From assembly GCA_963700285.1 (NCBI GenBank), contig CAVOXA010000002.1, positions 1 through 25,744 on the forward strand: a stretch of DNA of 25,744 nucleotides. The letters are read 5' to 3'. Below the pieces are notes generated by a model that saw only the letters and a program-made list of their open reading frames with translations, ran no database searches and had not been told where the DNA came from. This document shows, in pieces, positions 699 through 21,139 of this stretch. A program made the translations under genes and the position numbers. This DNA comes from an uncultured Chloroflexia bacterium (GTDB lineage: Bacteria; Chloroflexota; Anaerolineae; JAAYZQ01). The stretch's first letter is position 1; each line of letters opens with the position of its first letter.

Positions 699-1611
699 TC
701 AGCTAGAAATGTGTTTTATATATCCGTCCAGCATGTGCCAGGGTTTGAAGCCACAGGCTTGGTAGAGCCCTCGGGCAGCTTCGTTATGCCCAAAATGAGC
801 AACCGTTGCGAATTCCATCCCGGCGGCCGCCATCTGCTGCATACCGTACAGAATTATCGCCCGCCCAAAACCACGGCGTCTATGATCCTTGTGCGTGCCA
901 ACCGGTTCGAACAGTCCGGTGCGGTTCAGATGATCATACCAGATGACGGTGAAGGCCGCGAAGGTACCATCCGGAGCTTGGATGACCAACTCCCGTTCGG
1001 GCGCATAGCCCGGGGACTCCATGACTTGCCGGTACAACTCAGGGGTCCAGCCCACCCCGAAGGAGGCGTTATGCACCTCAGCCAGGGCGGCAGCATCTTC
1101 AATACCGTTAGCCGACCGGAACGAGTAACCATCCGGGAGAGCAGGCACATCAATGGAATTTATTTCGGTGCGGTTCAATACATAGGGTAATTCATTGTCT
1201 GACTTCCCAGCCCAATGCCGCGAGAAGTTCAACTCGAGCTGTGTCACCCCGAAATGCATCCGCGTAGATGCAGTCACCAGCAATATCATACCGCCGCATT
1301 AGTTCTACAGTGCGTTCATCGGCATATTCCAGAACTTCTCGTTCGAAATCATCACCCCGCAGATCTGGGCGCACCTGGGCATCATAACTCTTATGACGGG
1401 GTCCCACCAGCAGCCACGCGGCCACCCCTTGATCATCCTCCCAAATCGTCATGAGTTCAGCGGGATCATAATATTTGTTGCCATTATAAATGTGATGGGG
1501 GATGTCTCCGGGATGGAGATATCCGCAGTGATCGGTCGCGGCGATCGCCGCGGCATTAAAATCTTGGAGCAGTGTAAGATCGGCTTCTCCGGTATAAGTG
1601 CGTCTTATCAT
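699..1611 (-). pseudogene. GNAT family N-acetyltransferase, split by one frameshift near 1205 (real or sequencing error)
   Basis: ORF 1192..1611 (…LAALGWE) continues in another frame as DNELPYVLNR…FEPVGTHKDHRRRGFG…NEAARGLYQACGF (acetyl-CoA binding motifs). Confidence 0.8.
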
Positions 1612-1638
1612 ACTGCTTGATCCTTCACAGATTTTTCG

Positions 1639-1711
1639 TGATTACGCCGCGCATCAGCGACAAACCAAAGGCGTTGCCTTTGGTTTGTCCGGCTGCATGC
1701 GCTTGTTATGT
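1639..1711 (-). other. Integron attC site (73 bp)
   Basis: Minus strand ACATAAC (contains the TAA stop of the upstream gene)-AAGC-GCATGCAGCCGGAC…GTCGCTGATGC-GCGGC-GTAATCA. Extra-helical bases are in the left arm; perfect 14 bp inner stem 1659-1672/1676-1689; R' is GTA rather than GTT. Confidence 0.85.
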
Positions 1712-2260
1712 GGCTCCTTCTGCACGCCAATATCCAGGATAAACAGTCGCAAAACCATCTGAGCGAATTTCAAGAATACTGGTAAATTTACTCCCAGGTG
1801 ATTGGTAACGATATTGAGTGCCAGTCAGTCGGGTGTAGATTTGTTCCGAGGGAACCAAGGACAAGCTTGGAAACTGGAGCCAGGCTACTTTTATTTTTGC
1901 AGATTCCCCTTCATCCAGTGAAAGCCTTCTGATGGGAAGCAGATTGGTTGACGGACTGAAACCCAGGTCGATATCGATACAACCCTCAGTTCCGGGGTGT
2001 TCTGTTCCATTGATACACCAGGTACCCTCAGATACCTCAATCTCGTAGCTACATTGGCTAATTCCAATGTGGCCAAATACTTTCACGGATTGTGTAAGCC
2101 AATATTCATCGCAATAGATGGTATAGCCGAAACCACAATTCTGGTGCTCATCTTGGAATACCGCGAAACCAGATAGCCTCCACCCACTGGTGATCTTTTC
2201 TAGCAGCGCGCTTTCACAGCCAGGAACATCCAGGCGGCGCCATAGAATTGCTGTCTTCAT
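1706..2260 (-). CDS. Putative glycolipid-binding domain protein
   Basis: ILWRRLDVPGCE, GCIDIDLGFSPSTNLLPIRRL, EQIYTRL…YRYQS, DGFATVYPGYW are typical of this family. ATG at 2260 after GAGAGG; lower GC than its neighbours. Confidence 0.85.
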   Translation of the reverse strand: MKTAILWRRLDVPGCESALLEKITSGWRLSGFAVFQDEHQNCGFGYTIYCDEYWLTQSVKVFGHIGISQCSYEIEVSEGTWCINGTEHPGTEGCIDIDLGFSPSTNLLPIRRLSLDEGESAKIKVAWLQFPSLSLVPSEQIYTRLTGTQYRYQSPGSKFTSILEIRSDGFATVYPGYWRAEGAT

Positions 2261-2293
2261 CTGCAATTCCTCTCAGAATAGCTCTGAGTGCCA

Positions 2294-2332
2294 CTACTCC
2301 CCAATAATCTTGACCAACACCCGTTTCCGTCG
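2294..2332 (-). pseudogene. yjbQ: yjbQ C-terminal remnant (12 codons + stop), copy 3
   Basis: Encodes [12 protein letters not shown], matching the ends of the copies at 5246 and 7250. Downstream CTCAGAGCTAT is shared with the 7250 copy. Confidence 0.85.
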
Positions 2333-2394
2333 CTAGCATCCAGGATTACAAAGGCGCCAAGCCAACCCTGCTCAAACTGACGGATATAGATCGG

Positions 2395-3810
2395 CTATCG
2401 CAGATGCCGCATGGCAGCTCGGGCTGCATGGGTCCCGCACATGCCGTGCACCCCGCCCCCAGGCGGTGTGGAAGACGAGCAGAGATAGAGACCCCGGACG
2501 GGCGTAGTGTAGGGATTCACGCGGACGACAGGCCGGGTGAAGAACTGGCGCAGATCCTGTACTCCTGCGTTGATGTCGCCGCCGACATAGTTGGGATTGT
2601 ACGCCTCCATCTGGCTGGCGTCCATGGTGCTCAGGGCCAGGATCCGGTCCCGAAAGCCGGGAGCAAAGCGTTCGATCTGCGCCTCCACGCGACCGGTCAT
2701 GTCCTCCGTCGAGCTGTGGGGGACGTGACAGTATGCCCAGGCCGTATGCTTGCCTTCTGGCGCGCGGGTAGCATCAAAAAGGCTCTGCTGGGCCAGGATG
2801 ACGTAGGGTCGTTCCGGGTGCTCCCCCTGCCAGACGGCGGCCTCGCTCTCGGTTATCTCCTCCAGGGTGCCGCCCAGGTGCACGGTGCCGGCCCGCAAGC
2901 ACTCCTCTGCCCGCCACGGAATCGGTCCGTCCAGGGCATAGTCGAGCTTGAACACTCCGGGCCCGTAGCGAAAGCGCAACAGGGCATCCCGGTACCCCGC
3001 CGGCAGACGGTCGCCCGAGATCCCGACTAGCGCGCGCGGCGAGGTGTCAAAGAGAGTCGCCCGAGCCTGGGGCAGGTCGTGGGTGGAGTGCACTGGACTG
3101 CCGGTGTGGAATTCCCCGCCCAGCGATTCCAGATGGGCGCCAAGGGCGTCGGCGATCCGCTGCGAGCCGCCGCGCGCTATCGGCCAGCCGATGGCATGTG
3201 ACAGCATGCCGAGGATCAGGCCAATCGCCGCCGTGGCGGGCGACGTCAGGGGGAGCATGGCATGGGCAGCCATGCCCGCAAACACGGCTCGGGCACGCTC
3301 GCCGCGAAAGACCGCTCGTGCCAGGGTGGCGGCAGGCAAAAGCGCGGTCAGCCCAAAACGGGCCATCAGCAGGGCATGCGATGGGAAGCGAAGCGGGCCG
3401 AGGACGTCGTCCAAAAGCCCCTGCCAGCCGTCGACCAGCGGCTCCATGAGCCGCCGGTAGGCGCCTGCATCCGGGCCGAGATTGGCCGCGGTCTGCTCGA
3501 CGGTGCCTTCGACCATCACGGCGGTGCCGTCGTCCAGGGGATGCGCCAGCGAGGCAGGAGGGTAGACCCACTCCAGACCGTGCTGCGCGAGGGGTAGGTC
3601 CCGAAAGAAGGGCGAGGCTACGCCCAGCGGATGGAGGGCCGAGCAGACGTCGTGCATGAAGCCCGGAATGGTCAGTTGGGCCGTGCGGGTGCCCCCGCCG
3701 ATGGTGGGCTTGGCCTCCAGGACGAGGACCGACTTGCCGCCCCGAGCCAGCGTGATGCCAGCAGCCAGGCCATTGGGGCCGGAGCCCACTATCACGGCGT
3801 CGTAGGTCAT
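2395..3810 (-). CDS. NAD(P)/FAD-dependent oxidoreductase, phytoene dehydrogenase-like family
   Basis: MTYDAVIVGSGPNGL Rossmann motif, HDVCSALHP, C-terminal LYLCSSSTPPGGGVHGMCG. ATG overlaps the upstream stop (ATGA). Confidence 0.9.
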   Translation of the reverse strand: MTYDAVIVGSGPNGLAAGITLARGGKSVLVLEAKPTIGGGTRTAQLTIPGFMHDVCSALHPLGVASPFFRDLPLAQHGLEWVYPPASLAHPLDDGTAVMVEGTVEQTAANLGPDAGAYRRLMEPLVDGWQGLLDDVLGPLRFPSHALLMARFGLTALLPAATLARAVFRGERARAVFAGMAAHAMLPLTSPATAAIGLILGMLSHAIGWPIARGGSQRIADALGAHLESLGGEFHTGSPVHSTHDLPQARATLFDTSPRALVGISGDRLPAGYRDALLRFRYGPGVFKLDYALDGPIPWRAEECLRAGTVHLGGTLEEITESEAAVWQGEHPERPYVILAQQSLFDATRAPEGKHTAWAYCHVPHSSTEDMTGRVEAQIERFAPGFRDRILALSTMDASQMEAYNPNYVGGDINAGVQDLRQFFTRPVVRVNPYTTPVRGLYLCSSSTPPGGGVHGMCGTHAARAAMRHLR

Positions 3811-4544
3811 CGTGCGAACAGGCCGCGGACCCAGCGGATGGGCAGGTACAATGTGGTACGCATCGCGGCGTTGTACCAGAGGTTGGTTGCCCTGGCCCAA
3901 TGTATCGTCGGATCCAGTAGGACTGCGTCCTGGTACATCGCCTCGCCCTCGGCGCCAAAGTGGGCGGCCAAGTTGGTCAGCGTGCCTTGCCAGAACTGGT
4001 CTTCCGCCTCAACGGCGAATCCAAGCCGCTGCCCCAGTTCGTACAGCGGATCGCCGGAGCGCAGCATCGCCTGGACCTGCGCCACGGTGACGCCGTCCTC
4101 CTCGTAGGCGCTGAAGGTGATCATGCCGCCGAACATGTGGCCTTCCACGCTCAGGAAACAGAACGACTCCTCGTCGGCATAGGCCACAAAGATGCCGGTG
4201 GCAATGGTCGTGCCCATCGGGCCCGCGAGATTCAGCACGCCAACGTCGCCGAGCTCGATCGGCCTGTCTGCGCCGTAGAAGGTGCTGCCCGGAGGCCAGA
4301 AGCCGGCGAATCGCTCTTTCCATACCCGACAAACCTGAGCGGGGGTCGCCGCTGAGCCAGTCAGGCCGATCTGGTAGGTCCTCAGCCACAGCGGGCCAAA
4401 GCCCTTCATCGGGCCCATAGGGCGCCTGCCCTGAACGTTCAGGTTGATCGCCTCTTTGGGCAGGTCCGGTACACTCAGCCGCTCAACCGGTGTGGCCCAC
4501 TGTCCCTGCGGTCCCGTCTTGAGCTCTGTCTGTTTTTCAGTCAT
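3807..4544 (-). CDS. Conserved hypothetical protein (possibly DUF1990-like), coupled to the STAS gene and the oxidoreductase
   Basis: ATG at 4544 after AAGGAGG; long ORF with motif EGHMFGGMITFS; stop overlaps the next start. Confidence 0.7.
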   Translation of the reverse strand: MTEKQTELKTGPQGQWATPVERLSVPDLPKEAINLNVQGRRPMGPMKGFGPLWLRTYQIGLTGSAATPAQVCRVWKERFAGFWPPGSTFYGADRPIELGDVGVLNLAGPMGTTIATGIFVAYADEESFCFLSVEGHMFGGMITFSAYEEDGVTVAQVQAMLRSGDPLYELGQRLGFAVEAEDQFWQGTLTNLAAHFGAEGEAMYQDAVLLDPTIHWARATNLWYNAAMRTTLYLPIRWVRGLFAR

Positions 4545-4604
4545 GCGCGCCTCCTTGATGGTCACAATGCCGCGGGTCGCGGTGAATGGTGCAGAACCCT
4601 GGCA

Positions 4605-4955
4605 TCACAGGCTCTGCAACGCCTCGGCCTCGCCGGCGTAGACCTCCAACGCCTCATCAAGATAGGTCACCAGGAAGGCCTGCTGCAACGGGACGCCAAG
4701 TCCGCACGCCACCAGGCGCTGCTTCTGGTGTTGGGCACGCGCCAGCAGCGCGATCAACAGCCCAAGGCCAGAGCTGTCCATAGCCTCCACTTCACCAAAG
4801 TTGAGGATGACGGTCTCCGCACCGCCGCTGCTGGCTTCCTGGTACGCAGCCGTCAGCGGCTCTTCGGCAGTGCGGGTGATGGGACCCCGGAGATCGAGGA
4901 TGCGAACCCGGTCGGCCGGTTCGCGGACTGCTACTTCGAGCTTGGCTTGTACCAT
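4605..4955 (-). CDS. STAS domain protein / anti-sigma factor antagonist
   Basis: VILNFGEVEAMDSSGLGLL phosphoacceptor motif; 116 aa; AGGAGG RBS. Confidence 0.9.
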   Translation of the reverse strand: MVQAKLEVAVREPADRVRILDLRGPITRTAEEPLTAAYQEASSGGAETVILNFGEVEAMDSSGLGLLIALLARAQHQKQRLVACGLGVPLQQAFLVTYLDEALEVYAGEAEALQSL

Positions 4956-5245
4956 GCTGGACCCTCCTGTTCAGTTGGCGGACACGGTGTGCCGAGAGAA
5001 TGGCTCCCCGGTGCTCGATCGCGCTGCCAGTGTGTCGGGGCTTGTTGTACGGGATGATCTCATTGTAATCAGTTTTATGAAAAACGCAGCTCCATAAGGA
5101 TGCTTGCGTGTACTTTGTCCAAATCTGTCCTGCGGGTCTCAATCCGGGATCTGAGCCTGTGATGCCCACATGGCTCGCAGCCGGGACAGGTCACCGGCTC
5201 CCTCCGTCGGTCCACCCAAGGCTGAAGCCCATGTTCAGCAGCGAC

Positions 5246-5569
5246 TTATTCACCTATGATCTTGACCAATGCTCGCTTCCGCCGCCGCCCGTCAAACTCG
5301 CCGTAGAAGATGCGCTCCCAGGTGCCAAAGTCGAGGCGGCCGTTGGTCACCGCCACCACCACCTCACGGCCCATCACCTGCCGCTTCAGGTGCGCTTCTG
5401 CATTGTCCTCGCCGGTGCGGTTGTGCCAGTACTGCTCTATCGGCGCGTGTGGTACCAGCTCCTCGAGTCACACCTCGTAATCGTGGTGCAGGCCGCTCTC
5501 GTCATCGTTGATGAACACACTCGAAGTAATGTGCATCGCCGATACAAGGGTCAATACCCTCTTTATCAT
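5246..5569 (-). pseudogene. yjbQ: 5'-truncated yjbQ (UPF0047) with internal TGA, copy 2
   Basis: [37 protein letters not shown]…[17 protein letters not shown]…[18 protein letters not shown]. Trp codon replaced by TGA at 5468-5470. Confidence 0.9.
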
Positions 5570-5691
5570 ATACCACTCTCATGCCCCTGACGGCAGAGGC
5601 CCTGGCGGCCATAGGCCGCGCTCTGAACAACCACAACCGAACCCAACTTCTACGGCTGAAAATGAATCCTGCTGGGGCTCTGCTCGCCGAT
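5570..5691. repeat. Non-coding direct repeat A, upstream of truncated yjbQ
   Basis: Aligns with 7574-7696 (offset 2004 bp), about 85% identity by eye, one indel. Confidence 0.9.
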
Positions 5692-5854
5692 ATTGTACTG
5701 GCAAAGCGAGCAGACAGCATAGTGCAATGACATGGAGTTACCAGAAAGAGTCGTCTTCGCGTTCACGCACAACCCGCAGACGGTACTCGCCGATCATAGT
5801 CGGACGCTTGCTTGCCATCTCTTTTGCCTCAATTACGGACGCATGTTGCCGGGC

Positions 5855-5912
5855 ACCTAACGGGCAGCATAACCCGAGCGCGGAGGGCATCGGCTTCATG
5901 CCGTTGTTGGCC
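5855..5912 (-). other. Integron attC site (58 bp)
   Basis: Minus strand GGCCAAC-AACG-GCATGAAGCCGATGC…GCTCGGGTTATGC-TGCCC-GTTAGGT. Starts 3 nt after the stop of the C45 gene; R' fits GTTRRRY. Confidence 0.9.
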
Positions 5913-5915
5913 GTG

Positions 5916-6965
5916 CTAGGTACACGAATCTGTCCATGGCCACTCAAGTTTTTGCCAGTTTCCCCTGCTTGCTGCTGGATATCCTCCGAATGTGTACCAG
6001 ATTTCGCCGGTACTCGGACATGCCACGTTTGAATATACGGTAATGAGCCGTCCATCGCGTCTTTCAATCGCGTCATCAGCAAGGATCTGAATTAGATCAG
6101 TAGGCAGGTTGGAAGGAGTCTGCGAAGCGGATAATGACTTTACAAGATTCTCCATTTGCGCAAAACGGCTCAAGGTGCCTAGCGGCTCTTTGTCGGCATC
6201 ACTCAAGGTCAGGTCTTCACAGGCGCAAAAATGATTCGTCCCAACGATCCAGCCATTGGACGGCTGCCTTCGATAATGCTTGGAACACATACACTCGAAA
6301 AGCGCGAACTCGTTATCTTTTCCGTCCACAGCAAACAACAACATGCCGCCATCCCTATCTGTTCTGTTGAGAAGCGCTTCGACGTCGCTGATCGTGTGAC
6401 AGAGTTCCAGCGCTTCAGTCAGAAACACATAGGCAGGGACGTGCGGCCTTCCTGGCCTTGGCTCGTCCCAAACAGGTAGAAAATTGTAGTGTAACCACAG
6501 CCTTTCCTTGTTGATGCCGGTTGGGGCAAATACATCACACTCCATACTGAAACAAATTGTTGGAATCCGCCCCTCAACTTCCCGGATTGTCGCATAGCCC
6601 CATAGCTCGGGCACATAGGAGTCGTTATTCCGAGCAATCCAGGCGCACTTGTCAAACAAGGCTACTGCGCCGCTACAGTATATTGACTCGCATTCCTCGA
6701 TATAGGACCACTCGGCAAGCCTCTGCAACGGGAGATTCGCCCCTTTCGCCATGCCTTCCAATTCATCCTGAAACCGTTTCGGCAGACGGCGCAACCATGG
6801 CAGAGCACCTTGATGCAGTTTGATCATGTCGCTGGCGTATTCTCGACCGGCAAGATAGTGGTTGATGGTCTGTTCGAGTTTTGCGCCGAGTGTACGTCCA
6901 GCGGCAAAGCCTATTTCGTATGGATTACCTTTGAAATAGTGGATCCGATCGAGATAATTGTTCAT
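5916..6965 (-). CDS. Peptidase C45 family (Ntn-hydrolase, acyl-CoA:6-APA acyltransferase-like)
   Basis: GNPYEIGFAAG, ELEGMAKGA, putative nucleophile Cys in IYCSG, ARNND, TGIN, VGTNHF. Confidence 0.8.
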   Translation of the reverse strand: MNNYLDRIHYFKGNPYEIGFAAGRTLGAKLEQTINHYLAGREYASDMIKLHQGALPWLRRLPKRFQDELEGMAKGANLPLQRLAEWSYIEECESIYCSGAVALFDKCAWIARNNDSYVPELWGYATIREVEGRIPTICFSMECDVFAPTGINKERLWLHYNFLPVWDEPRPGRPHVPAYVFLTEALELCHTISDVEALLNRTDRDGGMLLFAVDGKDNEFALFECMCSKHYRRQPSNGWIVGTNHFCACEDLTLSDADKEPLGTLSRFAQMENLVKSLSASQTPSNLPTDLIQILADDAIERRDGRLITVYSNVACPSTGEIWYTFGGYPAASRGNWQKLEWPWTDSCT

Positions 6966-7011
6966 CGAAGATAATTGTTTACCGTATCAGGAGTCTTTCC
7001 AACCTCTAACC

Positions 7012-7040
7012 ATTGTACTCCTATTTGGGGTTTCAGGCAA
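7012..7040 (-). promoter_or_regulatory. Sigma70-type promoter
   Basis: TTGCCT-N17-TACAAT on the minus strand, directly followed by GTTAGAG and GTTGGAA, about 45 nt before the C45 start codon. Confidence 0.65.
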
Positions 7041-7134
7041 GCGGTCGATTGGGGAGTTGCGCCTCTCGCGGCGCTGATAGAGACAAGGCTGCTAGCCCAC
7101 CTACATGGGGCCGCCCGGCTCGAGACCACGATTC

Positions 7135-7175
7135 AGGCCGGGGCTGAGAATCAAACTCTCAGCCCCGGCCTTTTT
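7135..7175 (+). terminator. Rho-independent terminator-like hairpin
   Basis: Perfect 15 bp stem AGGCCGGGGCTGAGA / TCTCAGCCCCGGCCT with a 7 nt loop, followed by a T run on the plus strand. Confidence 0.7.
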
Positions 7176-7249
7176 GTCGTACAGACCCTCTCCCTGTTGT
7201 GACACACCAGAGCCATAGGCGATTACGCTCATGATAGCTCTGAGCACCC

Positions 7250-7573
7250 CTACTCCCCGATGAGCTTGACCAGCACCCGCTTCCGCCGCCGCCCGTCGAA
7301 CTCCCCGTAAAAGATCTGCTCCCACGTACCAAAGTCTAACCGCCCATTGGTCACCGCAACCACGACCTCGCGCCCCATCACTTGCCGCTTCAGGTGCGCG
7401 TCGGCATTGTCCTCGCCGGTGCGGTTGTGCTGGTACTGGCTGACCGGCGCGTGCGGCGCGAGCCCCTCCAGCCACTTTTCGTAATCGGCGTGGAGGCCGC
7501 GCTCGTCGTCGTTGATAAAGACCGACGCCGTGATATGCATCGCATTCACCAGGGTCAGTCCCCTCTTTATCAC
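7250..7573 (-). pseudogene. yjbQ: 5'-truncated yjbQ (UPF0047, secondary thiamine-phosphate synthase family), copy 1
   Basis: [63 protein letters not shown]. Only 107 aa, so the usual N-terminal ~30 residues are missing; otherwise open. Confidence 0.9.
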
Positions 7574-7696
7574 ATACCGCTCTCACGCCCCTGACGGCAG
7601 AGGCCATTGGGGCGATAGGCCGCGCCCTGAGTAACCACAGCTGAACCCAACGTCTACGGTTGAGAATGAATCGTGCTGCGGCTTTTGCTCGTCGGT
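7574..7696. repeat. Non-coding direct repeat B, upstream of truncated yjbQ; lies mostly within a possible atypical 141 bp attC (7589-7729)
   Basis: Homologous to 5570-5691. On the minus strand GCCTGAC (contains the DUF1801 stop) pairs with GTCAGGG, and GCCCATT pairs with AATGGC with one extra base. Confidence 0.8.
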
Positions 7697-7778
7697 GCGG
7701 TAAACTCGGGAATGGGCACTTTGTCAGGCGTATCCGACTTCTCTCATCCGCTCCCGCACGATTCTCTCAACCAGTTCC

Positions 7779-9287
7779 CTAGTACTACAACCGCAGTTTT
7801 GCCGGCATGCTGGCATCCGGCTTCAAGACGGAGCCGCCAGGCGGTAGCTTGACGGCGAGAATGGCTCTGGCGGGCCTGCCAGCGCTTGGCCCGTCGATAC
7901 AGCGACCATGCCAGTCGCAGCTCACGCGAACGATAGGGCAAGGGTAGCGCCACTTCCAGCAAGCGGCGCACTTCCGGAACCGTCAGCTCGGCCAGGAAGG
8001 GCTCAGGCCCCCTTTTTTCTCCGTGGCTTTGTAGCGGACGGAGGCGAGCCAGGCGTGAGCCATCATCGAGAGTGTAATATGACGATGCCAACTGTGCCAA
8101 TAGCGTACCTCATACTCGTCCAGGCCCGTTTCACCCTTGGCCTCTTCGATACATTGCTCGACCGTGTAGCGGGTCGAGGCCACTTGCGCCAGCTTCAGAA
8201 GCGGCGTGTCAACCGGCGCGTTCGACAAGTAGTAGGCGATATCGGTCGGATCACTGATCGAACGGCGAGCAATCAGCCAGCCATCCGGTCCCGGCAGCCC
8301 GTCACGGCTTTCAACGATCCGCTGGCAAGCCCAGTCGTACGTAATCAAGCCCTTCTCGCCTTCAGCTACGACCAGTCTCTGCCAGCACCTCTCGGACCAA
8401 CCAGCCACGACTTGCTTCACGGTCGTCGCAGATGGTGCACCTTCAGCCAGGCGCACTTTGGTGCGAGGTCGGCCCTGCCCCTGGAGCTCAGGTTCAACTA
8501 CCTGCGGGCGTTCAGTCCATATAGGCGTGATCGTCCGAACGGCCAGGACGTACCAACGCTCATAGCGGGTAATCAAGTCTCGCAGTTTGGTCGAGGCGCC
8601 GTAGACTTCATCACCGGCAACCCAACGCATCGGCACTCCCGCCTGCCAGGCATGCTCCAACATCGCCATGGCCTGCTCGGGCTTGGTCTGAAAGGCCACG
8701 TCCTCAGGCACCTTGGCTCGCTTCCGCCGCTCGGAGTCATTGCACCACTCTTCAGGCATGTACAGGCGGCGATCCAGGAACATGTGCCCTTTCGTCGTCG
8801 CATAGCTGAGAAAAGTGCCGATCTGACAGTTCTCGACCTTGCCCGCGGTGCCCGAGTATTGCCGTTTGACACCCACCGAGTGCTTGCCCCGTTTGATAAA
8901 GCCGCTTTCGTCCACAACCCCGATGGCATCTTCTTCGCCGAAAACATCGACCGCGAATTCCAGCAGGCGATCCCGCGCGGCGTCCGCACTCCACTGCGCT
9001 TGGTACAGCAAGCGTTGTGTGGCATCCGGGGTGCGATCCCCGATCACTTCGGCCACTTGCCAGCTATTCTTGCGCGGCACCGCCGCCATCAACCCTCGCA
9101 GGTACTTGGTGGCTTGTGCTCGCGGCTCTTTGCGACGAAAAACGGAGGCAAAACGGCTGCAGAACTGCAAGAAATCTGCGGCCCATTCATTCAGTTCTTC
9201 GGCGGTCATATCAGCCCTCCAGCGGTTTGGTGTTGCCACCATTATCTGCCAGAAGGGCTATTTTGTAAAATGCGGTAGTAGTACTAG
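7779..9287 (-). mobile_element. IS701 family insertion sequence
   Basis: CTAG at both ends (7779-7782, 9284-9287); inverted ends TACTACAACCGCAGTTTT and TACTACTACCGCATTTT; ~1.5 kb; transposase inside. Confidence 0.95.
7983..9242 (-). CDS. IS701 family DDE transposase
   Basis: RKNSWQVAE, VVDESGFIKRGKHSVGVKRQYSGTAGKVENCQ, VAGDEVYG, RYTVEQCIEEAKGETGLDEYEVRYW. The LTVPEVRRLL tail lies in the -1 frame after A6G5 at 8008-8018. Confidence 0.95.
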   Translation of the reverse strand: MVATPNRWRADMTAEELNEWAADFLQFCSRFASVFRRKEPRAQATKYLRGLMAAVPRKNSWQVAEVIGDRTPDATQRLLYQAQWSADAARDRLLEFAVDVFGEEDAIGVVDESGFIKRGKHSVGVKRQYSGTAGKVENCQIGTFLSYATTKGHMFLDRRLYMPEEWCNDSERRKRAKVPEDVAFQTKPEQAMAMLEHAWQAGVPMRWVAGDEVYGASTKLRDLITRYERWYVLAVRTITPIWTERPQVVEPELQGQGRPRTKVRLAEGAPSATTVKQVVAGWSERCWQRLVVAEGEKGLITYDWACQRIVESRDGLPGPDGWLIARRSISDPTDIAYYLSNAPVDTPLLKLAQVASTRYTVEQCIEEAKGETGLDEYEVRYWHSWHRHITLSMMAHAWLASVRYKATEKKGGLSPSWPS

Positions 9288-9752
9288 GCAAAGGCTTTTC
9301 AGGAGTGAAGTGAATGGTCGCACCAGAGACCTTCACACCCTTTAGCTCTTCGGCCATAGCTTTCATGAGTGACGGGCTCATGCTATGCAAGGCGCAGTGA
9401 TTCTTCTGCGCAGACATGCCAACGAGATCTTTACCCAGCCGGAAGATCGGAATCTTGTAGCTAACCCGCTCGGTACATTCTGGCGCTGTTTCTCTTATGA
9501 TGTTTCGTACCCGTTCCAGACTTGATCGGATGTCAGACGGCAGAGCGGCAAGATAGGCATCGATCTCCTCTGACGCATGGCGTGATGGTTTTGATTTACT
9601 CACAGAAATACGCCCTTTCTGGCGCTACAATCAACAGCGCCACCTGCAGGATCCTGAATGCCTTGCAGTACCACGCTTATCCCCCGGTACAGCCGGGTTA
9701 GCCAGAAATGGACTTAACCTGCAATGGCTTTGACACCAACGCCTGGCTCTGC

Positions 9753-10328
9753 TTAGCGAACACCGCCCGGTACGGCAAAATCGACTTCCTCGACCGATGC
9801 TGTGCCGTTTTTGCGGCCCGGGTAGCTTAGCCAGGTCATCGCAATGTTGAGTTCACGGATGATATCTGCCGCTTCAATCCTGATGTCGTTCTCAAGTTCT
9901 ATCGTCTCAGTGGTATGGGCATCTTGAATGAGGGTGAGATCGTAGCCTCGATCCAGCGCACCATACGCCGTTGCTCGAACGCACCAGTTCGTGGCAGCGC
10001 CAACCAACACGATGTGCGTAGTGCCAAGCCGTGCTAGCGTCTCCTCTAATGACGTTTGCTCGAACGAGGAGTTGAAATGCTTGTCGAGCCGCATTTCGCC
10101 TTCTGCGGGCGACAGTTGAGGTACTAGCTGCCATTCAGGGCTGCCATCGATCAGTTCGTCGTCCGAATGCTGTACCCATATGACCGGTACATCCTGGCCC
10201 CGGGCTTTCTCGACAGCGATGCCGATGTTCTTGATGATGCGTTGAGCAGCCCACACATCTTGCATGACTCCGACCTGCACATCCACAACCAAGAGAACCG
10301 TCTTGTTGCCTTCTCGAATCGTTGCCAA
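9753..10328 (-). CDS. Isochorismatase family cysteine hydrolase
   Basis: Catalytic triad motifs LLVVDVQ, DKHFNSSF, GAATNWCV; TTG start after GGAGG. Confidence 0.9.
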   Translation of the reverse strand: MATIREGNKTVLLVVDVQVGVMQDVWAAQRIIKNIGIAVEKARGQDVPVIWVQHSDDELIDGSPEWQLVPQLSPAEGEMRLDKHFNSSFEQTSLEETLARLGTTHIVLVGAATNWCVRATAYGALDRGYDLTLIQDAHTTETIELENDIRIEAADIIRELNIAMTWLSYPGRKNGTASVEEVDFAVPGGVR

Positions 10329-10399
10329 GTTTGCCACCTCCAGTTGATGCTCTGTTTTGTGCTCTGTTTGTGCCAGGAAAAGGATCGCATCCTCTTGCG

Positions 10400-10466
10400 G
10401 CCCAACGGTGCCGTTCGGACGGCAGCGAACGAAGCGAAGCTGGTCGGCTGCAACCGCGTGCTAGCT
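10400..10466 (-). other. Degenerate attC site (67 bp)
   Basis: Minus strand AGCTAGC-ACGCG-GTTGCAGCCGACCAGCTTCGCTTCGTTCGCTGCCGTCCGAACGGCACC-GTTGGGC. R' is perfect; R'' has AGC for AAC; right arm partly decayed. Confidence 0.7.
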
Positions 10467-10537
10467 GCGTTGCGGCGTTCGGCAAGACTGCCTTGGATGC
10501 AAAGTGACCCGCCCGGCCTGGCATCCGCTTGGCCAGG

Positions 10538-11065
10538 CTACTGCTGAGCCTGGGATGCCCAGCTTGCAGGTTTTCCCACCCGCTGTCCCAGGAACATGAG
10601 CAGTTGTGCAGCGTGTTCCTGCACATGACGCAGATTGTACAGCTGAAGCTCGGCGAAGGGCAGTTCTCCCCAGCCAAAGCGGCACATCCGATAGGCTTGT
10701 TCGTTGGACAAAGCGCCAATAGTCTCCTGGCACTTGCGGCGGCAGGTTTCCAAGTAGCGGAGCAGTTCTTCGCGTGTATAGGTCCGCGGCAGAATCTCGC
10801 CCGGCTCCATCTCAACCAGGTCGAATGGCGCAGGCGGAGCAAAGCCCTCTTCCGCCCCGGTTAGGTATAGGTCTAGCCAGAATAGTGTATGGTAGCCCAG
10901 ATACCAGAACGCCGAAAAGCCAGCTGCCACCCACTGGTCCGGCTGATCTGTCCATAGCCGTTCTTCCCAGAGTTCATCCGGGCAGTCGCGCAGAGCGTCG
11001 CCCAGCATGTCGATTGCCGCTCCAAACTGGCGCCATAACATCTCATTGTTAATGATAGCCATCAT
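10538..11065 (-). CDS. DinB family protein
   Basis: QFGAAIDMLGDALRDCPDELW, FWYLGYHTLFWLDLYL, YNLRHVQEHAAQL (His triad). Confidence 0.9.
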   Translation of the reverse strand: MMAIINNEMLWRQFGAAIDMLGDALRDCPDELWEERLWTDQPDQWVAAGFSAFWYLGYHTLFWLDLYLTGAEEGFAPPAPFDLVEMEPGEILPRTYTREELLRYLETCRRKCQETIGALSNEQAYRMCRFGWGELPFAELQLYNLRHVQEHAAQLLMFLGQRVGKPASWASQAQQ

Positions 11066-11141
11066 CCCGTCCCTCAGATTCTTCCAGGTCGATTTCGTTC
11101 ATCCCAATTGGATGGGCACGCTGTTCAATTCGAAACAGTGC

Positions 11142-11216
11142 GCCTCACACCATGCTCAGCTGTGTTTAGGAGCGGCGAAGCCCTGAGCTAACATCGGCTG
11201 CAGCAACCCGCTAGTT
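11142..11216 (-). other. Degenerate attC site (75 bp)
   Basis: Minus strand AACTAGC (contains the TAG stop of the SRPBCC gene)-GGGT-TGCTGCAGCCGATG…CACAGCTGAGCA-TGGT-GTGAGGC. TGCT[G]CAGC pairs with GCTGAGCA with one extra base; both core triplets are mutated. Confidence 0.65.
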
Positions 11217-11624
11217 GCCCGTCGCTTCTACATGTTTCTTAAAGTTGTCCAAAATACTCTGCCAACCTTGCTTCTGCTGCTCAGCAGAAAGTTGATCTTC
11301 AGCTTGGAAAGTCTCGACGACCCGGATTCCCTGTTCAGTTTCAAAAAAGACGATACTCACCTTTCGATCATCATCCAGGGCATATTCGATGCTCTTACAC
11401 TCATTGATAGAGGTAAACTCTCCCTCAAAGTCAAATCCCATGGATCCATCCTTTGCCTCCATACGATAGCTGAATCTTCCGCCAACTGAGAAATCGATTC
11501 TGGCATCCGGGCAACTCCAATCGTCTGATGCAAAGTTCCACTTTTTGATATCATCTGGCGTTATCCATGCTGTCCAAACCTTTTCTATTGGTGCATTGAC
11601 TGTTGTTTCTATCGAGATCTCCAT
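11211..11624 (-). CDS. SRPBCC (AHSA1-like) family protein
   Basis: APIEKVWTAWITPDDIKKWNFASDDW, YRMEAKDGSMGFDF, QKQGWQSILDNFKKHVE; low GC. Confidence 0.9.
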   Translation of the reverse strand: MEISIETTVNAPIEKVWTAWITPDDIKKWNFASDDWSCPDARIDFSVGGRFSYRMEAKDGSMGFDFEGEFTSINECKSIEYALDDDRKVSIVFFETEQGIRVVETFQAEDQLSAEQQKQGWQSILDNFKKHVEATGN

Positions 11625-11676
11625 GCTTACCCCTCTCTTAGGATTTGTTTAGGCAACATCGCGTGCTCATCCTGCA

Positions 11677-11801
11677 CTAGCCAGGATTCTCTTCTTCTCG
11701 ATTAGCGCCAGCATAGACCCTTTGCAGCTCAGCAAGATCGAATTTCTTCATCTTGAGAAACGCTTGGGTAGCTTGGGACAGCCTCTCAGGGTCTTCATCC
11801 C
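11677..11801 (-). pseudogene. C-terminal remnant of a VOC/PhnB-like (3-demethylubiquinone methyltransferase family) gene
   Basis: Reads DEDPERLSQATQAFLKMKKFDLAELQRVYAGANREEENPG*; no start; cut at the MITE edge. Confidence 0.7.
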
Positions 11802-11919
11802 TGTGCTGGCCGAAAACGCACATCCGTTCCAAGGCCCGACGTTTAGGATGAGTAGCCCTCTTGGGTTATTCGGGCTGACTGGCTGATCCCAGCACGGATA
11901 GCATTTTTCGGCCAGGACA
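11802..11919. mobile_element. 118 bp MITE-like element with TGT…ACA ends
   Basis: 26 nt terminal inverted repeats TGTGCTGGCCGAAAACGCACATCCGT and TGTCCTGGCCGAAAAATGCTATCCGT (20/26). Confidence 0.65.
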
Positions 11920-11939
11920 CGGGCGTTACGACGGAACCC

Positions 11940-12203
11940 TCAGACGGGCTGGCGTTCCGATAGGTAGCCCTCCATGTCGTCGATGAACGCTTACGTGGCC
12001 AATTCGATGCGGGAGGTTAGAGCCACCTGGTCATCGAGGTCGAAACCCGAGGCCACGTCATACTCCACAATCGAGTCAATCCCCTTCGCCGGCGCGACCA
12101 CGCGGTACTCGGGCCACTGGCTGTCCTTAAACAGCGCCCAGTACTGCCGCAGGACTTTGCGGTTGCGTCCGGACAGCCAGACCTCGAATCTGGCTCCTTT
12201 CTC
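11940..12203 (-). pseudogene. 5'-truncated conserved hypothetical gene (resembles DUF7000 family) with internal stop
   Basis: RFEVWLSGRNRKVLRQYWALFKDSQW…KGIDSIVEY…TSRIELAT*AFIDDMEGYLSERQPV*; TAA at 11991-11993; no start codon. Confidence 0.6.
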
Positions 12204-12310
12204 CTAAGCGCAACCCCCGCTGTAGGGTTCTACCATCCTTTGATCAAAGGATGTGTCGAGCCGCACCCAGGCGGCGGCACGAGCCAGGGTCTAGGCCAGC
12301 ATCAACCTGC

Positions 12311-13143
12311 TCAACCCTCAAAAGTATCCGGATGTGGTCCCACGCGCTTTCCCTCGTCCAGCGCGTCCAGCGTATTCATGTCCGCCTTGGAGAGCTCAAA
12401 GTCAAAGATCTGGGTGTTCTCGGCGAGGCGGTTGGCGTGGACTGATTTGGGAATCGTGACCACTTGGTGTTGCAGATCCCATCGAAGCACAATCTGGGCT
12501 GGGGTCTTTTGGTGTGTATCGGCCAGTTTCTGAACAGCCGGTTCGGACAGAATCTGCCCCACCATCAAGGGACTCCAGGCCTGCACCTGAATCTTGTGGT
12601 CCTGGCAATATGCCAGCAGATCGGGTTGGACCAGACACGGATGGAACTCGATCTGATTCACGGTGGGGACCGTTTGGGTGTTGGGCAAGAGGTCGTCCAG
12701 GTGATGGACCAGGTAGTTGCTGACGCCGATCGCCTTGGCGCGGCCGCTGTGGTAGATCTCCTCCATCACCTGCCACGTCTCTTGGCTGCGGCCTACCACG
12801 GGCCAATGGACCAGGTACAGATCCACGTAATCGGTGCCCAGGCGCTCCAGGCTTTCTTCAAGTGCCGCCAGCACTCGCCTCTCTCGCTGGGCATCATTCC
12901 ACACCTTGGTCGTCAAGAAGATGTCCTCGCGCGGGACACCGCTCTCCCGCATCGCTTCGCCGACGCCGCGCTCATTCCCGTATGCGCTCGCCGTATCAAT
13001 GCTGCGATAGCCGATCTCCAAGGCATTCCTGACGGCCTGTTCCACCTCCTGACCGTCGCTGACCCTATGAACGCCGAGTCCCAACCAGGGCATCTCCAGC
13101 CCGTTGTTCAGCCGGGCGCAGTCCTTCACATGCTGGTGATCAT
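12311..13143 (-). CDS. Aldo/keto reductase, apparent frameshift after codon 5
   Basis: LNNGLEMPWLGLG, GYRSIDTASAYGNE, TKVW, YVDLYLVHWP, IGVSN, IPKS. ATG at 13143 (MITSM) is out of frame with KDCARLNNG. Confidence 0.9.
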
Positions 13144-13146
13144 GTG

Positions 13147-13659
13147 TTAGTCTCCTGTCCCAAGCTTGCCCGCCAACCCCTCTGCCCAGGCGCGGATGGC
13201 CTCCCAATCCCGTATGTCGGTGGCTGGCTCCGCACCGGCCAAGATGCTGAGGGGGAAGCCCAGCTTTTCCGGGGCGTACTTTCCGCCCATGATCTCGATG
13301 GCCACCGGCTTGAACCAGGGATACTTGACCAGAGTCTTGTCGAGCTGCTCCCGCGCGCCCCGCCACTCCTCTTCATCATGGGGCTCGTGGGTGGGGCCCA
13401 GGGCGAATACAGCCGCCGGCAGTGCCTCCAAGGCCTTGCGGTGCCGCGACAGGAACTTGCGCGCGTCCTTGTGCCAGCTGAACATATAGAGCGCCGCCCC
13501 CATCACGACGCCGCTGTAGCCGTCGAGGGAGCGCACGTCCCGAAGTGGCTGAAGGTCCACAGCCAGCCCGCTCTCGCCCAATGTCTGCGCGATGGCCTCG
13601 GCCACCTCTTTCGTTGAGCCATAACGTGTCGCGTATGCGACCAGGGTTTTTGCTGGCAT
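13147..13659 (-). CDS. Flavodoxin-domain protein (HemG-like)
   Basis: LVAYATRYGSTKEVAEAIA FMN loop; C-terminal DIRDWEAIRAWA. Confidence 0.9.
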   Translation of the reverse strand: MPAKTLVAYATRYGSTKEVAEAIAQTLGESGLAVDLQPLRDVRSLDGYSGVVMGAALYMFSWHKDARKFLSRHRKALEALPAAVFALGPTHEPHDEEEWRGAREQLDKTLVKYPWFKPVAIEIMGGKYAPEKLGFPLSILAGAEPATDIRDWEAIRAWAEGLAGKLGTGD

Positions 13660-13980
13660 GATGATTCTGCTCCTCTCTCTTTCTCCCGTGTGTGGTCCTG
13701 GCAGTTCCGCATCCTATCGCTGAGCAGAACTTGCGCTGCAGCGACAGACCCACAGGCCAGTTCGCTGCTGCCTGCGGAGCCATACCGGGCATCGGCCACC
13801 ATTGTACCATGGAACTATGGAAATGTCTTCTCTAGGGAGGAAGGGTGAGGGGAAGAACTCGCTGCCATCCACCACTGCTTGAAGGAACGGGGCTGCATTG
13901 GCAGCAGTTTGCCGGTGTATCGTGTTATGCATGGCCTGGAACCCCGAACACCGGATGCGGCGGTAACGTGCAATATCGGC

Positions 13981-14108
13981 AGCTAACGGTTGGCTTCACC
14001 CGCCAGGCGGCTTTGCAGTGTGCCGCTCTGGCCAGAACCACTCACAATGACGAGACCAATATCCAAATCGAGCCGCGATAGCCTGGTCGGGTGCAAGCAG
14101 TGTTAGCC
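13981..14108 (-). other. Integron attC site (128 bp)
   Basis: Minus strand GGCTAAC-ACT-GCTTGCACCCGACCAGGC…GCCTGGCGGGTGAAGC-CAACC-GTTAGCT. Two extra-helical bases in the left arm; 32 nt after the YdeI stop. Confidence 0.92.
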
Positions 14109-14140
14109 CGCCCTCTTCTACCTTCCTTGAACCCCTCTCA

Positions 14141-14701
14141 TCAATAGTAATCCTCTATCCCTCGTCCGAACTGCTTGTCCTGTCCCGTCATCTTGATCAA
14201 GTGTGCTAACCGCTTTTCGTACTCTCCAGGTCTATTCCGCGCCACATCTATGTATGCAATCCGAATCCGCTGATATGACCCTGAGTATCTCTGAAAGTTT
14301 TTCCACGCCTGTTCATTTTCTTGGAGGGCTGCCACAATGTCAGCCGGATACTCGAAATCTTCCAACCCTATCTCATCCAAGCCTGCCAGCACCTCTGGCA
14401 TCACCTTTCCTTGCTCGATCAGTTTCTTCAGCCTCTCCTTGTTCGTCTGCGAGTACCCACTCCCCGTTTTTCGCGGTGTGTAGCGTTGGGCGTATCGATC
14501 TTGGTCCAACTTCTTAACAATACTATCAATCCACCCAAAACAGAGCGCTTCTTCTACAGCATCATTGTACGGGACACTGGGTTTCCCTGTTTTCTTCAGG
14601 TAGCTCACTAGCCAGATTTCACTCGCGCTCTTGCAATGCTTTTCCAGCCAATCTCGCCACTCGTCTCGATTGGTGACATACAGCGTCTCAGTTACATCCA
14701 C
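14141..14701 (-). CDS. YdeI/OmpD-associated family protein
   Basis: RDEWRDWLEKH, YNDAVEEALCFGWIDS, QRYTPRK, YSQTNKER; GTG start at 14701 after GGAG. Confidence 0.9.
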   Translation of the reverse strand: MDVTETLYVTNRDEWRDWLEKHCKSASEIWLVSYLKKTGKPSVPYNDAVEEALCFGWIDSIVKKLDQDRYAQRYTPRKTGSGYSQTNKERLKKLIEQGKVMPEVLAGLDEIGLEDFEYPADIVAALQENEQAWKNFQRYSGSYQRIRIAYIDVARNRPGEYEKRLAHLIKMTGQDKQFGRGIEDYY

Positions 14702-14726
14702 AGCAGATCTCCAATAACCTGCCGGC

Positions 14727-14921
14727 GCGAATAACCTTGGGCAGCGACGAAGCATAGTGCGGGAACACGAATCCCACGGTGTTCCCACTGGCTGTCATCG
14801 ACTCTCTTCCGACAAAGCTCATGATGGGGATGAGCCGGGCCCCTGGCAGACGCTTCTGCAGTTCTTGGGCCACATGCAGAGAATTGCCGGTTCCCGAAAA
14901 GTAATCGATCTCTGTGCTCAC
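14727..14921 (-). pseudogene. N-terminal fragment of an EFR1-type flavodoxin-fold/ferredoxin gene
   Basis: STEIDYFSGTGNSLHVAQEL…VGFVFPHYASSLPKVIR; similarity stops after ~65 codons. Confidence 0.8.
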
Positions 14922-14979
14922 CAGGTCTACCCCCTTGCGGCACTCTTGCTCGCGGTGTGACCGCGCTTTCCGCTTCAGT

Positions 14980-16539: not shown

Positions 16540-16568
16540 GAGGTGACCCCTGTGAGAGTGCCGTCCAG

Positions 16569-17018: not shown

Positions 17019-17101
17019 GGTTCCTCCCCACTTGCTCGAGTATACACCATCCCTGTCCATCGTTCCTGACAACAATCTGTCGTTGTGTGGATAGCCCACC
17101 C

Positions 17102-19151: not shown

Positions 19152-19183
19152 GCTGTCTACCCGTTGCCCTCGCTCGAAGGAAC

Positions 19184-19839: not shown

Positions 19840-19993
19840 GACTGTATCTTCTCCGCGACACGCTTCTCATCTGCCCCCATGTGCAAGTGGGATCTGGGCA
19901 GACAGAAATAGGGCCGTCCAGGTCACGTAGCTTGCCGGACGGCCTCTGTTGTTGGCTCACAATCCTGCACGTCAGGGCAAGGGCCGTCCAGCC

Positions 19994-20518: not shown

Positions 20519-20520
20519 GT

Positions 20521-20789: not shown

Positions 20790-20813
20790 GTCTCACCTCC
20801 TTCTCTTCCGGAT

Positions 20814-21068: not shown

Positions 21069-21139
21069 TGTAGACTACCTCCTCTTGTTTGGATTATCTG
21101 TTCCAAAGCGGGAGCCGGTGATTCGGCGCCCGGCCCTTT

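Follow-up and report, generated by a model that had tools for sequence, protein, structure and literature searches.

The 3ʹ part of the gene yjbQ (protein family UPF0047) marks the boundaries between modules of accessory genes in an uncultured bacterium of the class Anaerolineae, phylum Chloroflexota. The window analyzed is a stretch of 25,744 nucleotides and represents an entire contig (CAVOXA010000002.1, termed C2; 25.7 kb) of the metagenome-assembled genome (MAG) of this bacterium. At each module boundary, a conserved noncoding segment, termed the arm, is followed by yjbQ codons 34-139, and this pair always recurs in the same orientation. The junction between arm and yjbQ is fixed at one codon, the genes lying between the boundaries (the cargo) vary, and the displaced yjbQ copies decay. 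The same anatomy is found across genera, and in one genome a native 5ʹ end of yjbQ is joined to a decayed 3ʹ end. These modules may be cassettes that lack an integrase and have accreted at one fixed spot in yjbQ through site-specific recombination by an enzyme acting in trans, a reading that stands about an even chance of being correct.

Arm-linked yjbQ copies in the window

A repeat search of the window finds a single direct-repeat family, at 5247-5546 and 7251-7550, with 79% identity and a spacing of 2004. These repeats lie within two long yjbQ 3ʹ copies, which belong to the following set of features:

7574..7715, minus strand: arm A, noncoding, about 142 nt in common with arms elsewhere (alignment)
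7250..7573, minus strand: yjbQ 3ʹ copy A, 324 nt, codons 34-139, open 107-codon frame (Pfam, alignment)
7135..7249, minus strand: yjbQ 3ʹ trailer of copy A, with a small hairpin (7227-7245) and a hairpin with a 15-bp stem (7135-7171)
5570..5749, minus strand: arm B, about 180 nt in common with other loci; invariant motif at 5557-5580 (alignment)
5246..5569, minus strand: yjbQ 3ʹ copy B, 324 nt, 79-81% identical to copy A, with an in-frame TGA (alignment)
2270..2332, minus strand: yjbQ end fragment C, consisting of the last ~12 codons and stop (2294-2332) and then a small post-stop hairpin (2270-2290)
25430..25744, minus strand: decayed, truncated yjbQ 3ʹ remnant, reading GLTLDN... (list of open reading frames, alignment)

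A preliminary description, made from the sequence alone, had placed yjbQ 3ʹ ends at 7250-7573, 5246-5569, and 2294-2332, and all of these coordinates hold. Copy A, an open reading frame (ORF) of 107 amino acids, matches positions 15-116 of the 117 in the UPF0047 profile (PF01894; E 3e-32, 111.6 bits against a cut-off of 27). Copy B scores 99 bits against the same profile, in a match that starts at position 14-15 and is interrupted by one TGA. Profile positions 1-14 and about 33 N-terminal residues are missing from both copies. The UPF0047 scan of the whole genome gives two partial matches on the window contig and no yjbQ 5ʹ end there, as the preliminary description had also reported.

The two long copies differ at 67 of 324 nt, with 35 synonymous and 17 nonsynonymous codon differences and a ratio of nonsynonymous to synonymous rates (dN/dS) of 0.14, in agreement with an earlier comparison by hand. 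On that basis, the copies had been taken for pieces of different functional alleles. Copy B, however, carries an in-frame stop that had been overlooked (TGG to TGA at 5468-5470) and is therefore not an intact allele. The DNA of copy A is 95% identical to the 3ʹ part, from codon 34 on, of an intact yjbQ gene on contig C15 of the same genome. (Here and below, C2, C15, and so on are contigs of this genome, G numbers are other genomes, and L numbers are outside loci.) The remnant at 25430-25744 aligns with arm-linked remnants in C15 (38.4 kb), L054, L075, and L046; the contig stops 2-3 nt beyond the arm junction of this remnant, so its arm lies off the contig.

Arms A and B are 85% identical over 133 nt, which confirms that the same segment, previously put at ~120 bp, lies behind both long copies. 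Arm A terminates in the invariant motif GAGAGCGGTATGTGATAAAGAGGG (7561-7584), and arm B includes a promoter-like ATGCTG-N17-TACAAT at 5720-5692 and a hairpin, CTGCTCGC/GCGAGCAG, at 5713-5680. At the other end of each unit, the small post-stop hairpin (GCGCTCAGAGCTATCTTGAGCG) is the final element common to units before the cargo starts. Part of the units, copy A among these, have an extra trailer of ~110 nt with a strong hairpin, and the trailer of copy A is also found behind yjbQ copies at other loci.

An intact yjbQ gene heads a similar array

The genome that contains the window is a 7.05-Mb MAG of 22 contigs (completeness 89%, contamination 6.5%). Its UPF0047 scan identifies three full-length yjbQ homologues. 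The intact gene that corresponds to the window copies is located on C15, where it heads a similar array with no recombinase near it. This gene encodes 139 amino acids, covers UPF0047 positions 1-117, and is unrelated to the arm upstream of codon 34. Three arms lie on C15, all of them downstream of the intact gene and co-oriented with it, which together with the two in the window brings the number of arms in the genome to five, each adjoining yjbQ sequence.

The order on C15 is intact yjbQ, an Abhydrolase_5 gene, an arm with a badly decayed copy, a beta-lactamase-family gene, an arm with copy Bʹ, a STAS module, fragment Cʹ, a 9.1-kb block, and a glycolipid-binding gene. The 9.1-kb block contains an IS3-like element and one more arm and is inserted inside the small hairpin after fragment C. 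The C2 and C15 arrays are 97-98% identical over two blocks, C2 1-2261 with C15 33075-35333 and C2 2274-5719 with C15 44446-47892. C2 may be a strain variant or a true duplication; in both cases, nearly identical flanks enclose different modules, and cargo order is not invariant between the C2 and C15 haplotypes. The Abhydrolase_5 cargo that follows the intact gene in C15 follows an arm-linked copy in L082.

A fixed junction with variable cargo

Of the 22 other genomes of the family, 6, representing 5 genera, contain the arm, with up to 7 copies; none of 39 genomes from other families of the class does. It is absent from the same-genus genome G001. In G001, this type of yjbQ is missing as well (33% identity at best), as are the glycolipid-binding gene and a close amidohydrolase, and no empty site is definable there. 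To look further afield, an exact 21-base arm pattern was matched against 185,579 species genomes and against metagenomes. This pattern occurs on 6 species-genome contigs, belonging to five Anaerolineae or Anaerolineales MAGs and one MAG labeled Sedimentisphaerales, and 49 times in metagenomes, at 48 loci. The MAG labeled Sedimentisphaerales (Planctomycetota) holds one arm-linked open yjbQ copy (L035, JARRQQ010000244.1), which reflects either a binning error or transfer beyond Anaerolineae.

At the resulting 54 outside loci, 63 arm matches reach the junction, 4 of them within 70 nt of a contig end. A tblastn match to yjbQ that starts at or before residue 40 directly follows 41 of the 59 arms with room for it; the other 18 are decayed or offset. 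In the printed translations, the last 11 nt of the arm are followed by yjbQ codons 34-44, (M/V/T/A)-I-K-R-x-L-T-L-V/D-N-A, in 70 of 70 units. The preliminary description had proposed yjbQ as a recurrent integration site. An accumulation of variable modules at yjbQ is supported by the common codon of these 70 units and, in relatives, by the combination of fixed codon and variable cargo at the outside loci and in the near-identical haplotypes. The arm was not seen apart from yjbQ in any unit. All loci with more than one arm (8/8) have their arms co-oriented, at spacings down to 1.3-1.9 kb (L044, L051, and L069). In each of the three loci that hold both an intact yjbQ and an arm (C15, L034, and L077), the intact gene is upstream and co-oriented, and in L034 and L077 it lies 3.5-4.2 kb upstream of the arm-linked copy. 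A diverged partial yjbQ in G009 (contig C157, L121, 10387-10578; residues 28-91, 56% identity) is without a detectable arm and lies 1.4 kb downstream of an intact yjbQ (91% identity).

The arm-linked copies are mostly broken. The 107-codon frame is kept in 11 of 50 distinct units that have a complete 95-nt arm and 311 nt downstream, and 4 of the 5 arm-linked copies in the window's own genome are interrupted. It follows that there is no maintenance of a short YjbQ protein, and the 107-residue form is not a conserved full-length protein. The arm-linked copies are displaced relics, and the divergence between copies A and B is mostly synonymous. Several of their lesions are common to loci with unlike cargo. 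A palindromic insertion of ~25 nt (CCTGTCCC...GGGACAGG type) breaks yjbQ copies at one codon, after GEDN/GED, in several loci with differing cargo, L080 (about 860-900), L033, L053, L068, L078, L081, and L028; it represents either a lesion in common or a very small inserted hairpin with site preference.

The cargo at outside loci includes many enzymes, among them alpha/beta hydrolases, beta-lactamase-family proteins, short-chain dehydrogenases/reductases, zinc alcohol dehydrogenases, methyltransferases, PPK2, and an M19 dipeptidase. Additional cargo comprises APH- and CPT-type phosphotransferases, DUF4386, GNAT, FUR, and PIN proteins, LuxR/MalT regulators, and ABC transporters. Cargo is sometimes multi-gene and antisense, as in L034, where five genes lie on the opposite strand. 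In L074, a group II intron reverse transcriptase/maturase gene (1-1413) is found just downstream of the arm-linked yjbQ copy.

The arm and the yjbQ 3ʹ part are also prominent in sequenced communities. In three of four estuary/sediment runs, the summed contig depth of bins covering them is 15-200 times that of the flanks, with less in run X1; in run X2, these bins reach 755-1656, compared with 8-49 in neighboring bins. This excess depth marks a repeat family with many variants in the communities and not copy number.

The conserved arm

Positions in the arm upstream of the arm/yjbQ junction are given minus numbers and positions downstream of it plus numbers. The full arm is ~210-245 nt long, with a small hairpin and a promoter-like TTGCTG-N17-TACAAT at -164 to -136 that points at the junction. 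Every arm retains at least ~65-95 proximal nt. Most of the alignment columns between -88 and -1 are at least 80% conserved among 56 arms, and the end, GAGAGTGGTATATGATAAAGAGGG, is invariant. In the 11 open units, the pairwise difference is 0.19 in the arm and 0.09, 0.05, and 0.395 at yjbQ codon positions 1, 2, and 3, respectively. The arm is therefore constrained, with a rate of change roughly half that of sites that are largely silent.

Three identities for the arm were considered and rejected. It is not coding sequence, having stops in every frame and no conserved ORF. An alignment of 15 arms has weak 3-nt periodicity and ratios of nonsynonymous to synonymous differences (pN/pS) of 0.60 in plus frame 0 and 0.49 in minus frame 0, and a 49-amino-acid ORF at 5581-5730 (plus strand) is open in arm B only. 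Nor is the arm a diverged yjbQ 5ʹ end; tblastn extensions over it have no real similarity, and in DNA alignments of an arm-bearing copy with the intact gene, homology begins only about GGG.CTG..CCTGG. A known or structured RNA was rejected in the absence of an Rfam match or covariation. Rfam 15 gives no match in the whole window at E up to 1, and RNAalifold predicts no arm-spanning hairpin from 5 or 56 arms, with -9 kcal/mol and 0 compensatory pairs for the latter set. RNAalifold likewise found nothing like the attC site that the preliminary description had placed in the 2004-bp unit. Additionally, the arm has no inverted-repeat partner within the window such as would mark an insertion sequence or a miniature inverted-repeat transposable element, and a promoter/terminator scan of 5200-7800 gives counts not above those of shuffled sequences.

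Breakpoints and a proposed mechanism

The most informative junction is found in G007 (contig C212), where a pristine native yjbQ start, including the ribosome-binding site and codons 1-38, is joined to a decayed 3ʹ allele. This allele has the ~66-nt deletion of arm-linked copies (L063, L069, L056, L051, and L039) and a 24-nt insertion in common with L069. The switch falls inside CCTGG (codons 38-39), at +7 to +11 after the arm. The proposed crossover core is this pentamer, located at 7549-7553 in copy A and present as the variant CCTTG at 5545-5549 in copy B. To the left of CCTGG, G007 has no homology to the arm-linked copies, and homologous recombination thus has nothing to pair there. The chimera is what would be left if recombination of the first core in an array with the second had excised the DNA between them.

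Two further pairs of loci exchange parts of a unit. C15 at 49.4 kb and L067 have the same decayed copy and downstream gene with different arms, and the switch lies between -25 and +3. The same C15 unit and L038 have the same cargo and distal arm with different yjbQ copies. In comparisons across families, the yjbQ 3ʹ part is not more homogenized than the 5ʹ part (0.76 versus 0.86 for close and 0.66 versus 0.78 for distant comparisons). Metagenome contigs contain joints with backward jumps of about 2000 or skips of about 2020, which were considered as signs of circles and deletions and set aside; with many repeat variants at 90% likeness, neither can be read from them.

In the proposed mechanism, the free module would be a circle composed of a yjbQ 3ʹ copy with its trailer, the cargo, and the arm. 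A recombinase encoded elsewhere would carry out conservative site-specific recombination at the short core CCTGG. Recombination between the arm|core|3ʹ site of the circle and the core of the chromosomal gene would yield an intact yjbQ, made of the host 5ʹ end and the incoming 3ʹ part, and the earlier 3ʹ part would be shifted downstream behind the incoming arm, where it would decay. Repeated insertions would build an array, and excision between two cores would remove modules and could leave the native 5ʹ end fused to a copy that had long been decaying. Inferred components of this mechanism are the circle, the chemistry of the crossover, and an enzyme that acts in trans. In its most extended form, this model describes integrase-free modules with a replacement 3ʹ three-quarters of yjbQ, an arm of ~95 nt, and a 5-bp core, which would be moved by a host-encoded or other recombinase and would make up a pool of mostly single-gene, exchangeable cassettes across communities of sediment and estuarine Anaerolineae. 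Such an integron analogue on a coding gene is a tentative proposal.

Search for a recombinase and alternative explanations

A number of observations weigh against accretion by site-specific recombination, beginning with the lack of an enzyme in the arrays. Phage_integrase, Resolvase, and Recombinase had no match in a Pfam scan of ~330 ORFs (about 100 amino acids or longer) taken from the window, from C15, and from 65 outside loci. In the window's own genome, at its 89% completeness, the 7 tyrosine-recombinase matches are confined to other contigs, with none (PF00589) on C2 or C15. The serine recombinase domain (PF00239) has no match in this genome or near the arrays. A co-occurrence test followed two recombinases of this genome across the 22 family genomes. 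The C7-type tyrosine recombinase, which looks accessory, has orthologues of 72-94% identity in seven family genomes, all arm-free, and matches of 43-44% in three more; arm-bearing genomes reach 32% at most. Other points concern the breakpoints and the arm itself. Switches lie inside the arm at about -62 between C2 and C15 and at about -58 between C15 and L038, and the screen of pairs could, by its own thresholds, detect breaks between -26 and +20 only. An unbiased breakpoint census was left with 8 high-identity pairs, of which 4 contained a break, a number too small for use. Neither a circle nor an empty site was observed; two raw-read runs supplied 24 reads in total (depth <1.3), with no circle or excision joints among them. 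The distal arm end is ragged, with 78-244 nt common between loci. Finally, in G052 (contig C181, L122, 7868-9316), which belongs to another family, an AbrB-type antitoxin gene and a PIN toxin gene separate an intact yjbQ from a 141-nt duplicate of its end (codons 93-139), without an arm. This one-off insertion, with its junction at codon 93, indicates that non-site-specific events do occur at yjbQ.

Both tested recombinases were rejected as the enzyme tracking the arm, the C7 type because its close orthologues occur in arm-free genomes only and the C10 type because it is near-universal. The latter is a conserved, Xer-like tyrosine recombinase, found at 57-67% identity in 19 of the 22 family genomes. 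C7-type matches number six in G001 and two in the window's own genome. The mobile-element genes near arrays are limited to IS701-like and IS3-like (C15) elements and the group II intron reverse transcriptase of L074, and no TnpB, IscB, or IS110-type gene turned up among the scanned ORFs. A related integrase-bearing parent element was not seen in the 65 loci, which are mostly short contigs breaking at the repeat, or in the 89%-complete genome.

Many of these observations would be expected if no dedicated recombinase were involved. A single founding event, likely homology-facilitated illegitimate recombination of foreign DNA anchored in yjbQ, could have made the junction of arm and codon 34. Cargo would since have been swapped, duplicated, and deleted as the ~440-bp repeats on either side recombined homologously or underwent gene conversion, both within a genome and following uptake of DNA. 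Breakpoints inside the arm, ragged distal ends, and arrays with no recombinase nearby all favor such a history; the G052 insertion with its duplicated yjbQ end is the expected signature of illegitimate events, and both the lesions common to different copies and the mosaic joints in metagenome contigs fit gene conversion. However, homologous recombination does not account for the switch within CCTGG in G007, where arm and native 5ʹ end offer no usable homology on the left. It would also need a fresh illegitimate join for each cargo, yet dozens of cargos lie between the same two boundaries. The slow change of the arm relative to third codon positions, the conservation of most of its proximal 88 nt across genera, and the retention of at least ~65-95 proximal nt in all arms also count against it. 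A history of this kind is the main rival, with a chance clearly below even.

The remaining alternatives are less probable. The arm might be transcribed as a leader or as a guide-type RNA, or a housekeeping recombinase of the host, such as an Xer-type enzyme, might use it as its site, with movement that is RNA-guided or hijacks Xer. The promoter-like sequence that points at the junction, the lack of a dedicated enzyme in cis, and the Xer-like character of the sole tested tyrosine recombinase common to arm-bearing genomes are in keeping with this idea, which is nevertheless unlikely given the negative Rfam and RNAalifold results, the lack of TnpB, IscB, and IS110-type genes, and the failure to find a convincing dif-like 11-6-11 site by eye against a dif consensus. 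Alternatively, the arm and the 107-codon ORF could together be a real gene, equipped with promoter, leader, and ATG, for a shortened paralogue of YjbQ that has been amplified in arrays among accessory genes. An in-frame ATG or GTG (M-I-K-R-G-L-T-L...) with a GAGAG 6 nt upstream is conserved at the arm end, and the 11 open units are 85-92% identical to the intact protein. That 39 of 50 complete units are broken, the window's own genome included, that the ORF lacks the start of the Pfam domain and the N-terminal residues, and that copy A is nearly identical to the intact 3ʹ part next to unrelated 5ʹ parts make this very unlikely. Least probable, and scarcely credible, is an assembly artifact in which strain variants were stitched together in a contaminated MAG. 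Contamination of the MAG, the near-identity of the window contig to part of C15, its end within a repeat, and several window genes split by frameshifts could all be read this way, but arrays of 2-3 units occur on single contigs of independent assemblies (8 loci) and in the 6 other family genomes, and copies A and B differ too much to be collapsed variants. Site-specific recombination in trans is held to be the most likely mechanism, at about an even chance.

Cargo and other features of the window

The modules between the yjbQ pieces and the sequences beside them comprise the following features:

9286..25429, minus strand: large module of cargo (16 kb or more) on the upstream side of arm A (Pfam, ORFs)
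7780..9285, minus strand: IS701-like insertion sequence with inverted ends of ~22 nt (Pfam DDE_5, E 5e-56)
5916..6965, minus strand: single-gene cargo, peptidase C45 / acyl-CoA:6-APA acyltransferase-like protein, 349 amino acids (Pfam AAT, E 5e-6)
2395..4955, minus strand: three-gene cargo, encoding a STAS protein (4605-4955), an unknown 252-amino-acid protein (3807-4565), and an FAD/NAD oxidoreductase (2395-3900) (Pfam)
699..2266, minus strand: flank past the array, with a glycolipid-binding-family gene (1706-2266) and a GNAT gene (Pfam)

The large module includes an arsenic cluster with ArsR, a split ACR3 (SBF), LMWPc/ArsC, a second ArsR-like regulator, and a split ArsP. It additionally encodes a P-type ATPase fused to flavodoxin, two DUF4386 proteins, YdeI/OmdA, a flavodoxin, an aldo-keto reductase, AHSA1/SRPBCC, DinB_2, an isochorismatase, and DUF1801; no recombinase was found in it by Pfam. 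The C45 gene is preceded by a promoter-like site at 7040-7012, a type of site for which scan counts are not above shuffles. The three-gene STAS module is also found in C15 and in metagenome locus L063. The IS701-like element, whose DDE_5 transposase gene occupies 7983-9242, entered the cargo immediately upstream of arm A at a later time. Metagenome contigs of two runs lack it, skipping 7779-9285 and 7778-9288, and further copies are found on C10.

Several window genes are split or unusually joined. The GNAT gene consists of two ORFs in the window (699-1611) and of one 303-amino-acid ORF in its C15 twin, ArsP and ACR3 are each in two ORFs (21898-22630 and 23669-24611), and the P-type ATPase continues into its flavodoxin domain via a low-complexity middle (16569-19226). 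All of these are either pseudogenes or the result of indel errors in assembly. Within the arsenic cluster, a 41-nt repeat (family D2) occurs three times at a spacing of ~285 nt (20430-21041), among small CPGC/thioredoxin-like ORFs on the minus strand; this run looks like tandem paralogues of a small redox protein. The segment 19993-23158 (3.2 kb) is 78.6% identical to C1:557622-560793, where the genome carries part of the arsenic cluster once more in diverged form.

Relation to known systems and significance

In integrons, integrase-less arrays included, small modules of mostly one gene each are lined up with a repeated recombination element between them. The yjbQ arrays resemble them in their small accessory cargo (GNAT, DinB, SRPBCC, alpha/beta hydrolases, and toxin-antitoxin genes) and in a repeat that is homogeneous within a lineage. 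Unlike integrons, they had no intI among the ORFs scanned and have no attC-like dyad symmetry or fold in the arm. In contrast to the promoterless, co-oriented cassettes with one ORF that mark integrons, their cargo can be multi-gene and antisense (L034), the window module reaches at least 16 kb, and each module carries a 324-nt piece of the target gene. Xer-dependent integrative elements and pdif modules are recombinase-free modules that gather at the site of a host recombinase, and here, too, Xer-like enzymes are the only tyrosine recombinases found in common among arm-bearing genomes. However, the site in yjbQ is inside a protein-coding gene, and no dif-like site was recognized when compared by eye with the consensus. 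In homology-facilitated illegitimate recombination and in "minimal mobile elements," an anchoring gene is partly duplicated beside foreign DNA and cargo is exchanged via the flanks. Anchor duplication as in G052 and cargo exchange between conserved flanks match this description, whereas such one-off or purely homologous events leave the conserved arm, the single cross-genus junction, and the CCTGG switch of G007 unexplained.

Accretion itself has precedents. Integrase-less cis-mobilizable elements (CIMEs) that accrete one behind another where a gene ends, as for elements of the ICESt1 type at fda, are described in PMC5704250, with a definition and a three-step scheme. CIMEs likewise pile up in tandem, leave displaced target ends behind, and include modules without integration or transfer genes. 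In contrast, the repeat in the yjbQ arrays is 324 nt of coding sequence plus a one-sided arm of 95-245 nt, many modules are single genes of 1.3-2 kb with no related integrase-bearing parent in 65 loci, and the target is yjbQ codons 34-39 in Anaerolineae hosts. A second precedent comes from the same phylum. According to PMC3146451, genomic islands of Dehalococcoides lie in tandem downstream of ssrA, and each ends in a direct repeat of the 3ʹ end of this gene, 20 bp of the transfer-messenger RNA gene. Just upstream of each repeat is a conserved 15-bp motif that is unlike the gene itself; 16 islands have a serine recombinase module (DsiB), and some islands without integration genes have been proposed to be cis-mobilizable (PMC3146451). 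The tandem arrangement at one gene, the motif beside each repeat, and the members free of integration genes are common to both systems; the yjbQ system differs in that no serine recombinase is found in the window's own genome or adjoining any array.

No description of this system was found in literature on yjbQ/UPF0047 integration, on cassettes in Anaerolineae or Chloroflexi, or on integrase-less gene cassettes. The preliminary description had known of no system of this form. For the exact system this still stands, but tandem accretion and the ssrA islands have been described, and the concept of accretion is known from CIMEs and these islands. Distinctive here are the target in yjbQ codons 34-39, the replaced part of 324 nt, the long, one-sided arm conserved across genera, the many modules that resemble integron cassettes in size and content, and the lack of a linked recombinase.

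If the modules are truly mobile, they would provide an abundant uncultured sediment lineage with a compact means of gene capture and exchange without a linked integrase, in which the target gene stays intact via the spare 3ʹ part that each module brings along. This would be a third design for stacking accessory genes, beside integrons and the accretion of decayed conjugative elements, and it would account for the breaking of metagenome assemblies at these loci. The arm and core also form a sequence tag for amplifying cassette pools directly from environmental DNA. Among the cargo observed are genes for hydrolases, methyltransferases, phosphotransferases, and proteins of the beta-lactamase family, along with arsenic and toxin-antitoxin genes.

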